From Octopus vulgaris (Eukaryota), in NCBI GenBank assembly GCA_951406725.2, contig OX597826.1, positions 27,032,001-27,096,000 of the forward strand: DNA of 64,000 nt, in the 5' to 3' direction. The position numbers and the translations under genes were made by a program. Positions 22,530 through 57,973 of the stretch are shown here, piece by piece. Below the pieces are notes generated by a model. It was not told where the DNA came from, made no database searches, and saw only the letters and a list, made by a program, of their open reading frames with translations. How positions within the stretch are numbered: the stretch's first letter is position 1; every line of letters starts with the position of its first letter.

Positions 22530-22730
22530 TCGTTAGTTACTGCACGCATTTTTTTTTCTCTCCTTCTTTCTCTGTTTTTTTCTCTCTGTGTATCTTTCTG
22601 TTGAAGAGCGTAGGCTCGAAACGTTAAAGACTTGTTTTATTTATATTTCCTGAGCGCCATACTAATACAATTGTTTGTTTGTTTTCCACCTGCCTTCGTC
22701 TTTTGTCTATTTTCATAAAGCTTCCCGTTA
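22530..22730 (+). mobile_element. Short Penelope-like (pLTR-type) repeat carrying a hammerhead fold; second copy inverted at 25278-25456
   Basis: Two homologous copies in opposite orientation, both in TA/CA tracts. Confidence 0.55.
22593..22630 (+). ncRNA. Hammerhead ribozyme-like motif, A6U core variant
   Basis: tcttt CTGTTGA a gagc-gtag-gctc GAAA cg TT aaaga: helix I tcttt/aaaga, helix II gagc/gctc, helix III AACGTT palindrome. Confidence 0.6.
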
Positions 22731-22766
22731 TATATATATATATATATATATATATAAATATATATA

Positions 22767-22890
22767 GACGTGAATATGTGGTAAGAAGCTTGCTTACCAA
22801 CAGCATGGTTTTGGGTTCAGTCACACTGCATGGCACCTCGGGCAAGTGTCTTTTACTATAGCCTCTGGCCGACCAAAGCCTTGTGAGTGA
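22767..22890 (+). mobile_element. SINE family A (5' part)
   Basis: GTGGTAAGAAGCTTGCTTACCAAC...GGCAAGTGTCTTTTACTATAGCC...GACCAAAGCCTTGTGAGTG. Confidence 0.8.
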
Positions 22891-24963
22891 ATAGTTAGAA
22901 AGTTCGCCTCGCAATTAGAAGTCTCGGTTTCGATCTCACTGCTTAGCTACCTGGACAAAAGTCTTTTACTATAGGCTCGGGTCAATAAAATGCTTATAAA
23001 AGACATCGTTAGTCGAAAACTGCCAAAAACACAGTGAGTGTAATTAAAAAGTGTCAAACACATTCTGCTTCAGATTACACTAATGCTTCAAAAAACAAAG
23101 GACCAATGGCCCTTCCCGAGCCTATGGATCATAAGACCGGTTTCCCCCGGATTCTGCGGCATATGTGGTCTCCCCGCTTTGGACAGGACGCCTCTCCGTA
23201 GTAGGGGACTGGAGCAATGCGAAACGAAGTGTTTTGCTCAACAACACACCGCACTATGCCACGCACCTCCACACATTAAGGCTACATCCGTCAGCAAAAT
23301 ACTCAGCCACATAAATGCTAATTCTGTGAGTGGAGGAGGCAGTTTAGTTCATTGAAGAACTAAACAAATATTGTCGAAAACTGTGAAGGTGTACTCTGTG
23401 TAGTCCACGCATGTGTGTATGAGAGTGTGCGTGAGAGAGAGAGAGAGAGAGAGACAGACAGACAGACAGAGAGAGAGAGAGAGAGAGAGAGAGAGAGAGA
23501 CAGACAGACAGACAGACAGACAAACAAACAGACAGTAGGGATGGTTTAATTGGATATTAAAATATAGTATGGCGACAATTTACCCATCGAACCCTGTTTG
23601 TGTGTGTGTGTATGTGTATGTGTGTGTGTATATACGCACACACATATCTATGTTGCAATAAAGAATTTTCCGTATGTTTGATCTACAGGTCGATCAACTA
23701 AAGCTACCCGCTGGACATTTTTCTGAGGTTATTAGTAAATGACTATTCTCCAAACTTGTATACAGTAACGTAAACCTCAAGCAGGACCACCACAAGAATA
23801 TGAGTGACAAAATCAGTAATATTGAATAGTAGAGACAATCTATAATATGACGGCCCAGACTTGTTTCCGTCGAAATAATTTCCTGCACATTAGGTTAGGG
23901 TCATTGCAAGGCTATAATGTTTAAGGCATGGCTGTGTAGATAAAAACTTTGAAACCCCGTGATTTAAGTTTCAACATCACGACGCTGCACCTTGACCTCC
24001 AAAATGGTTTTTAGTATATATCCCGGTCGATAAGTGTCTTGTGAATGAATTTTGTATCGTAGATGGAAACTGTGCGGAAACGTCTTGTATCCATGTACAC
24101 ATGTATACATATGTGTATGTATGTACGTCTCTCTCTCTCTCTCTCTCTCTCTCTCTATATATATATATATATATATATATATATATATATATATATATAT
24201 ATATACATGCATACATACATACATACATACACACACACACACACATATATATATATATATATGGTGCATCAGCATGGCCGCAGCTCTGAGCTGAAACCAA
24301 AAAATATATATATACATATACAGAGGGAGAGAAACAGAGAAAGATAGGAGAAGAGACAGATGGGTGTTTGTAAATCCTCACACGCACAGAAATGCACACA
24401 GCTCGAAGACGGGAGTTGGTGGCTTTATGTCGTCGGAATAGAGCTGCACAGCAAAGTCCGTTAGGGTAATTGCCAGACTTTTAAAACACTATGTACTGCG
24501 ATCGATTTCTTTCGACTAAACTGTTCAAGGCGGTGCCCCAGCATGGCTGAAGTATAAAAATAAAAAAAACAAGTAAGTGAGAAGAATTAGCAAGGGTGCC
24601 ATGTAATAGGGTAGAACGCAAGAATTCGTTTTTGCAGAGCGACACTTTTACATCGTTGACGAAAATGGCTCGTTACAAATGTACGCTGCTAGTGTCTGTT
24701 TGCGGGAAACCCGGAACTAAACTTTCTAACGTAATGAAACACATATCAGTTTTCCAATGCCCCTGCTGCTTATGCCGACAACGTGTTATAAGTTATATAA
24801 CGTTTTAGTTTACAAATTTCTGAAATTCTCCGAGTGAGGGTTAATGTGATTTTGAAGAGATCACAGGATAACTTTCTATTCGATCATAATATTTAATCTA
24901 AATATATCTTGGCTTTGAGATCGATAACAACAAAGGCATATATATATAAATCATATATATATA

Positions 24964-55810: not shown

Positions 55811-56040
55811 ATGTGCGAGGCTTGGTGGTTAGAGTGTTGGACCCTTGAGCGTAACATTGTGGTTTCGATCCCCCGACGAGGCGATGCATTGTGTTTTTGA
55901 GCGAACACTTCATTTCACCGTGCTCCAGTTAACTCGGCTGCCAAAAGCCGGTAATTCTGCAGCGGATCGGTGTTCCGTCCAGGGAGAACATACATTGCCA
56001 CAAAAACCAGAAAACAGGCGACCCTATGAGCCTATATGAC
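55811..56040 (+). mobile_element. Decayed tRNA-derived SINE (family C-like)
   Basis: GGCTTGGTGGTTAGAGTG...GGTTTCGATCCCC...TTGAGCGAACACTTCATTTCACCGTGCTCCAG. Confidence 0.65.
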
Positions 56041-57444
56041 TGGAGAATGATCTTTATCCTATCCTTAATCAAGTGAGTGATGCTTCTGTCGATTTGATCT
56101 AAGATGGTTACTTTCGCAGGAAATAAACATCGTACCATTTGTGGGATCAGTTCTGCATTTTCTACCTCATCTGAGCCTTATATATTTAAGAGTTATTGCT
56201 GTATATCTCAAGGTTTATCTTACAATGAAGACAAAAAACCGCTTCTCGTGATACGTTTTCGATTTCATTAAATATCCGTGTTCACCAGTGGTGACTCTCA
56301 ATTAGTGTGCGGCCTACATGTTTTAGTGACCTTCAGTGTTGCATTTCTCTGGGGATCATATTTAATGGGGGATACTACTATTTTAATAATATATATAGTA
56401 ATTGTGTATTTGTGTTTTTGAAAGAGACGACATTGACCTTACCCTTTGGGGGTGATTGCGAGGTCTGAATTCAGAGCTCATATTCATCATAATATTTCTA
56501 CGCTGCGCATCGATGAGATTTGAGCGTGATTGCATAATGAGAAAAAACGGGTTTTTGTAATCTGGATCGAAGTAGGAATAAAAGTAAATGGTTCACTGAA
56601 CCATGTTTAAATAATATGTCAAGTATCCTCTAATCGAACCGTTGTAAGATAGATGGCAACCAGAGCCAGGCAATTTCACATGATTTCCTTGTCAGATGCA
56701 GTCGGAATCTATGCAGATGTCGAAGACAAATGAGGCAAATTTCTGGTGAGCGAGATTCCTTTGTTCAGTTAAGGGATGAGAGTACCTGTAGGCCTAACTT
56801 TAGGAAAATCGTGTGTCATCATTATGACAGGGGAGAGAGAGAGGGTGGGTGGGAGAGAGACAGACAAAGAAAGAGAAAGTGAGAGAGAATGTTAGTGGTA
56901 AAATGCAGCCATATTTGATTTTCGACGAAGTCAAAATATGTGAAGTGGGGTGATGGATGGTCAAGACGAAGGTGTTCCTCTTCTTGAGAAGACGAATCTA
57001 TGATGTAACCAAATACAAGGGTATATAGCTAGAAAGAGAGAAAGAGGACAGAGACAGACAGACAAATAGTTGTGGCACAGAGGGAAAAGGAATTAAGATT
57101 GATAGATAGATAGATAGATAGAGAGAGAGAGAGAGAGAGAGGGGGAGAGATGGGGCATATTGCGAAATAGAGTAAGATAGATCGTAAGGAATGGAATAGA
57201 TAAATAAGGAGAGAGAGAGTGAGATTAAAGATTTTACTAATGATAGGGACTAGCTGTCAGACCCAGCTATTTACAGGAAGGAGAGACGGAATCTAAAGGG
57301 AATTTTTCAAGCTTAGTGACCATGGTTTCAAGAGCTGAGAGAAGTTAAAGTATATATGTGTGTGTGTGTGTGTGTGTGTGGATAGATGAATGCATATATG
57401 TATGTGTACATGTGTGAATGTATATATATATATATATATATATA

Positions 57445-57973
57445 TAAATTAATAATAAATATTAGGGAATAAATCCAAACTTACAGGGCAAAATCAGATT
57501 TAGGATTGAATCCAATTTTATAGTAACATATTATATTATATTAAATTAGAGATAAAACCACTATTACGCAAGTCATACAATGAAAAACTTAAGCCAATAC
57601 ATAAGATTATTTAATTTACATTATTTAAATATATAACAAAATTATTAAAAAATATAATTAATATAACACTACGATCGTTTCATGGCTGTTAATTTCTTTA
57701 AATTTTCGAGTTACAGTCATTCATCAGGTGGTTTAAATATTTAACTTGATTAAACCTCGCCAAGTTAAATATTTAAACCACCTGATGAATGACTGTAACT
57801 CGAAAATTTAAAGAAATTAACAGCCATGAAACGATCGTAGTGTTATATTAATTATATTTTTTTAATAATTTTGTTATATATTTAAATAATATAAATTAAA
57901 TAATCTTATGTATTGGCTTAAGTTTTTCATTGTATGATTTGCCTAATAGTGGTTTTATCTCTAACTTAATATA
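57445..57973. repeat. Large palindromic element in (TA)n (arms 57537-57748 / 57761-57973, 12-nt loop) with a hammerhead on both strands
   Basis: About 212-bp near-perfect inverted arms plus a one-sided extension at 57445-57536. Confidence 0.92.
57779..57842 (+). ncRNA. Type I hammerhead ribozyme, canonical core
   Basis: cac CTGATGA atgactgt-(23 nt)-acagccat GAAA cgatcg TA gtg; identical copy on the minus strand at 57667-57730. Confidence 0.8.

Follow-up and report, generated by a model that had tools for sequence, protein, structure and literature searches.

A 64,000-nucleotide stretch of the Octopus vulgaris genome (contig OX597826.1, positions 27,032,001 to 27,096,000 of the forward strand; in the following, the window) carries hammerhead ribozyme motifs in seven kinds of short repeat element, here designated families A to G. 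With high probability the elements are short 3′-end fragments of seven repeat families, which are Penelope-like elements (PLEs) in two cases (A and C) and likely so in the other five, and whose type I hammerheads are predicted to self-cleave as dimers or with the help of a protein. An earlier note, made from the letters of the window, had drawn attention to these motifs. Its observation is real, was correctly read and is mostly known; a family with a G3:C8 pair in the catalytic core and above all a lineage with U at core position 6 (U6) deserve attention.

All thirteen cores implied by the seven elements were located in the window (Table 1), and blastn gave zero matches between families at E<0.01, so that the seven elements are mutually unrelated, as the earlier note had claimed. 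A strict hammerhead descriptor yielded 3 matches in the window compared to a mean of 0.1 per shuffle (40 local dinucleotide shuffles). The remaining sites escaped this descriptor because helix I comprises just 3 bp (57.8 kb), because helix II is weak (45.8 kb) or because the copy is decayed, as at 25.1, 25.4, 25.8, 26.0, 39.8 (GAAA changed to GGAA) and 43.65 kb. In the family forms at other loci the full hammerhead pattern is restored. A first look for relatives gave 46 candidates for family A (with a strict query), 2,878 for B, 254 for C, 1,354 for D, 1,745 for E, 771 for F and 1,275 for G; 40 relatives were scored per family.

In all seven families the commonest form agrees with a type I hammerhead whose helix III is self-complementary. 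The core N3-U-G-A-N-N8-A with paired positions 3 and 8, helix II and GAAA were found in all seven family forms, family A deviating by its U6. The duplex energy of the self-complementary helix III (7/7 families) ranges from +2.2 (B) to −15.2 kcal/mol (F), and pairing of the palindrome is thus weak for A, B and D. The same three families have an additional base that separates position 9 from 10.1, together with a G10.1-C11.1 pair; an A10.1-U11.1 pair without extra base is present in C, E and G, and a U.U in F. The family A hammerhead at 22.6 kb has an extra A, a 4-bp helix II and a palindromic ACGU helix III, with a predicted cut after 22625, and ensemble folding gave a probability P of 0.99 for helix II and 0.77–0.93 for helix I. 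In the intact family D hammerhead helices I and II comprise 5 bp each and the palindrome reads AAUAUU. The consensus form of family B elsewhere has a 5-bp helix II and an intact GAAA, the family form of C has the helix III palindrome ACCGGU, and GAAA is also retained in the family form of E. Family F combines a 3-bp helix II over the U.U with a 4-bp helix III with palindromic loop, and family G has a long helix II (8 positions, one mismatch) and the palindrome ACGAUCGU. Rfam revealed no hammerhead family in three elements searched singly, and no hammerhead among the 150 of 552 matches listed for the whole window, where microsatellite matches dominate. Thus, standard models miss the hammerheads of the window; the earlier note had expected variant cores to escape CUGANGA-only motif searches.

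A scan with degenerate 3:8 pairs against shuffled sequence, as proposed in the earlier note, was run on 1 Mb of unselected sequence taken at round-number positions (loci L071–L110 and L300–L359); altogether ~2 Mb of the 2.8-Gb host genome were sampled, and the searches for coding partners of B, D, F and G were confined to these ~2 Mb. With positions 3, 6, 7 and 8 unconstrained 38 matches were obtained compared to 2–10 per shuffle (8 local shuffles). The matches comprised 22 C:G, 6 U:A, 5 G:C and 2 A:U combinations at positions 3 and 8 as well as 3 non-pairs; the respective shuffle means for the four pairs were 0.1, 0.5, 0.2 and 1.4, so that A3:U8 was not enriched in this sample. Since copies are not independent, the 38 matches were clustered into 12 groups. 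Six of these recur at two or more other loci (C:G 2, U:A 3, G:C 1), and the remaining 6 are near-singletons at background level. Regarding the claim that positions 3 and 8 covary, the enrichment of paired classes across families is confirmed; the covariation exists between families and not within one.

Families A and C are PLEs, as demonstrated by their contiguity with reverse transcriptase (RT)/GIY-YIG sequence. At locus L294 family A hammerheads at 2360 and 6832 flank a frame of 1021 codons with RT, CX4CxxC linker and GIY-YIG motif (RVT_1, E 1e-7; GIY-YIG, E 0.0035, which is below the cut-off), and the encoded protein is 27–30% identical over 550–700 aa to two PLE proteins with a clear GIY-YIG domain. 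Both pseudo-long terminal repeats (pLTRs) of L294 carry the ribozyme motif, an arrangement not seen for family C. At locus L184 family C lies ~400 nt downstream of a broken GIY-YIG remnant, and L032 shares the end of this open reading frame and the untranslated region (81%). Families B, D, E, F and G, which share the insertion signature of A and C, are likely of Penelope-like origin as well. Family 3′ ends are fixed at (TA)n, tails are optional and inversion junctions are variable. Each fold-back (25.1, 25.8, 30.2, 39.8, 45.8 and 57.8 kb only) combines one copy in sense orientation with an inverted copy that is truncated differently, and its outer edge on either side is the element's 3′ end, with or without tail; such an arrangement of inverted copies has been drawn for PLEs in the available part of PMC8557442. 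For B, D, F and G, where inverted 5′-truncated copies, optional 3′ tails and AT or microsatellite targets were all observed, we infer this origin. Family E forms head-to-tail dimers at L297 and L298 with a spacing of 352 nt and a hammerhead in each unit, and its tail runs on into the start of the 352-nt unit. The earlier proposal of Penelope-like or non-autonomous elements is therefore supported by coding sequence for A (L294) and C (L184/L032) and by the tandem unit for E; no coding partner was found for B, D, F and G in the ~2 Mb. Two pairings of the earlier note had to be given up: the copies at 22.6 and 25.4 kb belong to different subfamilies (76% alike) and were inserted separately, and the copy at 43.65 kb is a single one, separate from that at 25.8 kb.

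Besides A and C, three coding PLE families end in hammerheads. A search with PF01541 gave 6,136 candidates, of which 148 GIY-YIG places were scored, 16 of them in open frames of 781 aa. This 781-aa family (L051, L052, L053) is young and Neptune-like and has intact RT and GIY-YIG frames and an additional upstream frame of 359–479 codons with no Pfam match. In both of its pLTRs a U3:A8 hammerhead lies close to the end, ~60 nt before (TA)n. The second coding family (L059, L357; L059:5998-6055) shows a CCGAAGA core with U10.1.U11.1, and its relative L034/L068 has CUGAAGA. The third is a Poseidon/Penelope-like family (L361–L366; L247:700-1330) with 2,461 candidates and a CUGANGA hammerhead of its own in the 3′ region, and gave no partner for B, D, F and G. 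A putative tRNA-like stretch was recognized by eye in the same 3′ region. The CX4CxxC linker precedes GIY-YIG in 3/3 proteins checked (L294, L051, L059). All-against-all comparison of flanks and tblastn with three PLE proteins revealed no partner for B, D, F and G, and the window itself contains no PLE protein match. At L161 family B adjoins an inverted PLE RT fragment, a possible link to a coding element.

Two explanations would deny the elements this identity. The motifs might be chance matches of a loose pattern in AT-rich repetitive DNA, and a looser descriptor applied to the ~2 Mb indeed gave 323 matches, which include 60 singletons and small chance families with unpaired positions 3 and 8, so that the outcome depends on stringency. 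Likewise, a loose genome-wide G3:C8 pattern was uninformative (40,584 matches compared to 34,947 in the control). Nevertheless, with the stricter descriptor 33 of the 38 matches fall in the C:G, U:A and G:C classes compared to 0.8 expected, 6/6 recurring groups are paired at 3:8, and unrelated coding elements carry the motif at the same location relative to their 3′ end. Chance is thus refuted for A, B, C, D, E and G and seems extremely improbable overall, family F being least secure. Alternatively, the fold-backs could represent miniature inverted-repeat transposable elements or fold-back DNA transposons with an incidental hammerhead pattern. Their long, near-perfect inverted arms and the frequent occurrence of F, G and B as inverted pairs are in accordance with this, but the arms are unequal, junctions vary from copy to copy, solo arms are common, the fold-backs terminate on either side in the same 3′ end, and A and C are joined to RT/GIY-YIG sequence. 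The fold-back families showed no constant interior bordered by fixed terminal inverted repeats, and we consider a DNA transposon origin very unlikely.

The U6 core is the most striking deviation. Position 6 is normally an invariant A, and the hammerhead consensus CUGANGA leaves position 7 free. A genome-wide pattern for family A with unspecified core gave 23,683 matches and 0 matches in the reversed-pattern control. In a hand tally of the first 100 matches listed, position 6 was U in 93, A in 4 and C in 3; C3 was present in 100, U4 in 99, G5 in 98, G8 in 99 and A9 in 100. Position 7 varied freely (U39/A28/C20/G13), as it did in 41 unselected copies (12/11/10/8), and N17 was A78/U19/C1/G2 in the tally. 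A sister lineage with A6 has a 3-nt loop II, and 15/28 of its copies show U4C, giving the core CCGACGA (e.g. L339:5248, L357:6761 and L100:8511). The helix I pair 2.4:1.4 is C-G in 33/41 copies of the U6 lineage and G-C in 18/28 copies of the sister lineage. Furthermore, at L294 (2490-2500) and at L123 the element's own sequence right after the family A 3′ end starts with TA repeats. These match the (TA)n target and may guide priming.

The genome-wide pattern for family D gave 5,997 matches and 0 in its control. Among the first 100 matches listed, G3 was present in 100 and C8 in 96, and the subfamilies differ in loop II only. A possible second G3:C8 hammerhead with the core GUGAGCA and a 5-bp helix II, unrelated to family D, is present at L351:9811-9865 (−), and no second copy of it was found among the sampled loci. 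The 5′ limit of families D and F is fixed and lies shortly upstream of the ribozyme, and in family F 29/31 copies start 39–52 nt before the predicted cut site. Fixed 5′ ends 5–25 nt upstream of the core were observed in independent insertions of D, F (and G), e.g. at 30170 and 45780 in the window; they may correspond to transcription starts or splice acceptors.

The steps of insertion are modelled on an anole PLE and other PLEs, as far as described in the accessible parts of the literature (PMC11167929, PMC8557442). The GIY-YIG endonuclease of the element would nick AT-rich or (TA)n DNA, and the RT would start internally, 60–200 nt downstream of the ribozyme, two start sites giving rise to the optional tail. 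Uncleaved RNA would serve as template; this would agree with inserted copies having intact ribozymes and with 5′ ends being absent from the cut site. An early stop or a template switch would leave a short copy, in many cases linked to a second copy in inverted orientation, thus forming a fold-back. If transcription started in the pLTR, a short cDNA from start to tail would result, which could account for the many short ribozyme copies with fixed 5′ ends. Selection on transposing master RNAs would have kept the 3:8 pair, GAAA, helix II and the helix III palindrome, the rest having diverged. Family E would be a non-coding 352-nt tandem unit of the retrozyme type, mobilised in trans. Palindromic helix III points to dimers (PMC4209133, as far as available), and help by a protein is likely because of the weak self-duplex of A, B and D. 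Within the window the fold-back ribozymes lie on opposite strands and thus do not dimerise in cis. Predicted read-through RNA of C, D, F and G buries the core in a long hairpin; that of E leaves the hammerhead folded, but with the GGAA change. Given the opposite strands, the masking by the inverted arm and the decay, the window copies are likely relics, and most single genomic copies are likely inert.

Several results weigh against self-cleaving hammerheads of PLE origin. In family C helix I is improbable in the monomer (P 0.04), and the family F hammerhead differs from the predicted minimum free energy fold. An additional U3:A8 family with 5 copies shows one two-sided change in each of three helices, but this covariation is borderline, as 17/500 shuffles reach the score. 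For B, D, F and G inspection of 30 loci each with 1.5-kb flanks revealed no coding partner. Genomic 5′ ends within 6 nt of the predicted cut showed no excess (A 0/80, D 3/60, E 4/67), nor was an excess at the cut site found for C, F and G; a cluster of family B 5′ ends (−2 to +5) was rejected as cleavage trace, since it is confounded by the way queries were selected, by indels in the alignments and by a TAAA shared at the junction. In four poly(A) runs from a related organism neither a pile-up of RNA ends nor joints were seen, which is a weak test as most reads are less than 90% alike, and reads crossed the family D site. In these runs family D relatives were transcribed in both orientations, as passengers, and no read depth was obtained over the family E ribozyme, library and species being unsuited; no RNA source is listed for the 352-nt unit. 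Finally, the natural A6C hammerhead variant has a lowered activity according to the accessible part of PMC3088659.

These points leave room for the explanation that a fold of hammerhead shape has been retained as a structural signal, for binding of the PLE protein or for positioning of the RT start, and that U6 or G3:C8 cores no longer cut. We regard this as possible but rather unlikely. Ribozyme mutants of the anole PLE left insertion in vitro unaffected and no RNA ends were present at the site (available part of PMC11167929), neither genomic 5′ ends nor poly(A) reads revealed a trace of cleavage, and the lineage in which U6 is fixed has retained a long open frame. On the other hand, position 7 is free where positions 3, 4, 5, 8 and 9 are fixed, G hardly ever occurs at N17, and A3:U8 is not enriched, as would be expected under catalytic constraint. 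Moreover, the anole PLE ribozyme regained part of its cleavage with C3G/G8C (PMC11167929, same part). In vitro, PLE hammerheads are slow, protein-assisted and dispensable for insertion. Retaining cleavage, as a dimer or with protein, as the preferred function, we tentatively suggest, with more doubt than confidence, that the G3:C8 family (5,997 matches) and the U6 lineage (~22,000 of 23,683) are undescribed large families, both selected and cleaving, U6 probably only with the protein of the element. The genome would then amount to a mutational scan of the core made by nature and would directly test the role of PLE ribozymes. Such a scan would cover C:G, U:A and G:C but not A:U, as well as U6, U4C and U10.1.U11.1, and the U6 lineage would include a coding element of full length and four or more subfamilies that differ at position 7. 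As this lineage kept all other core constraints across subfamilies, it offers a sharp test of whether catalysis or fold is under selection. In this genome tens of thousands of such motifs escape Rfam and CUGANGA descriptors.

Small PLE hammerhead variants with a diminished palindromic stem III that cleave as dimers were reportedly described by Lunse, Weinberg and Breaker (RNA Biol 14:1499). Judging from a review (PMC6765202), the families found here resemble them in this stem, in the PLE association and in the dimer model. The emphasis of the earlier note on novelty has to be reduced, since minimal PLE hammerheads, U3:A8, opposite-strand pairs and diversity within a genome are already present in the accessible portion of PMC4209133, which reports many families per metazoan genome, mostly as solo copies. 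Shared with these minimal hammerheads are the type I topology, the short helix I, the palindromic helix III, the U3:A8 variant, the opposite-strand pairs and the extra nucleotide between 9 and 10.1, which is often there and occurs here in A, B and D. In contrast, the metazoan alignment in the supplement of that paper (Fig. S3) contains only CUGANGA and UUGANAA cores, with no G3:C8, U6 or U4C, and no cephalopod entry. Natural core variants in the available part of PMC3088659 include U3:A8, a change at position 6 (A6C) and U10.1.U11.1 as in family F; G3:C8 and A6U are absent from this part, where A6C is represented by one phage motif of low activity, whereas U6 here characterizes a family of tens of thousands. 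In the literature searched G3:C8 appears as a laboratory rescue mutant only, and no natural G3:C8 or U6 hammerhead was found there, the largest survey (Lunse 2017) and supplement file 1 of PMC4209133 lying outside it. The accessible parts of PMC11014351 and PMC3884650 contain nothing on natural G3:C8 or U6, and the available part of one paper on octopus does not describe these motifs.

The coding elements resemble endonuclease-containing (EN+) PLEs of the Neptune/Nematis type in RT, CX2-5CxxC linker, C-terminal GIY-YIG domain and pLTRs (PMC8557442), and the copies resemble those of EN+ PLEs in being inverted and 5′-truncated, in the optional tail and in microsatellite targets (PMC8557442, PMC11167929; all as far as accessible). 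Unlike Neptune/Nematis PLEs, the 781-aa family has the extra upstream frame. Family E is similar to non-LTR (long terminal repeat) retrozymes, which are tandem non-coding units of ~150–400 nt, each with a type I hammerhead, and give self-cleaved linear and circular RNA; it shares the non-coding tandem unit and the canonical type I hammerhead with them (PMC7229834; 10.64898/2026.07.22.740005, in part) and differs in that PLE-type insertion scars were seen directly, namely a 3′ end fixed at TA, the tail and inverted arms.

Table 1. Features of families A to G in the window (positions of the window; cores with position and strand).
Feature	Position	Strand	Core	Basis or remark
Family A, 3′ end, pLTR fragment	22522..22735	+		Between microsatellites; 97–98% identical to both L294 pLTR ends
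Family A, minimal type I hammerhead (U6)	22593..22630	+	CUGUUGA 22598(+)	Strict descriptor match
Family B, sense copy (U3:A8)	24943..25176	−	UUGAAAA 25144(−)	Helix II and GAAA decayed here, intact in family
Family B, inverted 5′-truncated arm without ribozyme	25177..25244	+		Sequence comparison
Family A, other subfamily	25280..25454	−	CUGUGGA 25402(−)	Older insertion of its own; palindrome of helix III broken
Family C, sense copy (U3:A8)	25688..25863	−	UUGAAAA 25809(−)	Linked to GIY-YIG via L184
Family C, inverted copy, decayed core	25870..26101	+	UUGAAAA 26013(+)	Core location and sequence comparison
Family D, arm with G3:C8 hammerhead and 3′ tail	29971..30166	−	GUGAACA 30154(−)	Strict descriptor
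Family D, second arm, intact G3:C8 hammerhead	30176..30326	+	GUGAACA 30189(+)	Strict descriptor; folding; genome-wide pattern
Family E, inverted arm including tail	39590..39728	−		Sequence comparison
Family E, part of 352-nt retrozyme-like unit	39737..39957	+	CUGAUGA 39756(+)	99% to L297, L298
Family C, single copy, helix II decayed	43587..43819	−	UUGAAAA 43679(−)	Core location and sequence comparison
Family F, fold-back	45705..45915	.	CUGAAGA 45785(+), 45770(−)	Weakest fold
Family G, fold-back	57470..57970	.	CUGAUGA 57782(+), 57727(−)	Left end at or before 57470

The surroundings of these elements are rich in microsatellites and in remnants of long interspersed nuclear elements (LINEs). Broken frames, presumably of LINE-type RT/endonuclease, were found at 4320-6759 (−), 9051-12254 (−) and 40781-41197 (−), and we take 16940-17425 (−) and 62327-62698 (−) to be remnants like Tc1/mariner transposases. 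Two inverted copies of 150 bp (50391-50541 and 52902-53053), 2.4 kb apart, start near CUGAUGA and show no hammerhead fold. A partial match to 5S rRNA at 59988-60075 (−) reached 40.8 bits compared to an Rfam gathering score of 38 and likely represents a 5S-derived fragment; it is adjoined by a 20-bp inverted repeat at 60091-60219.

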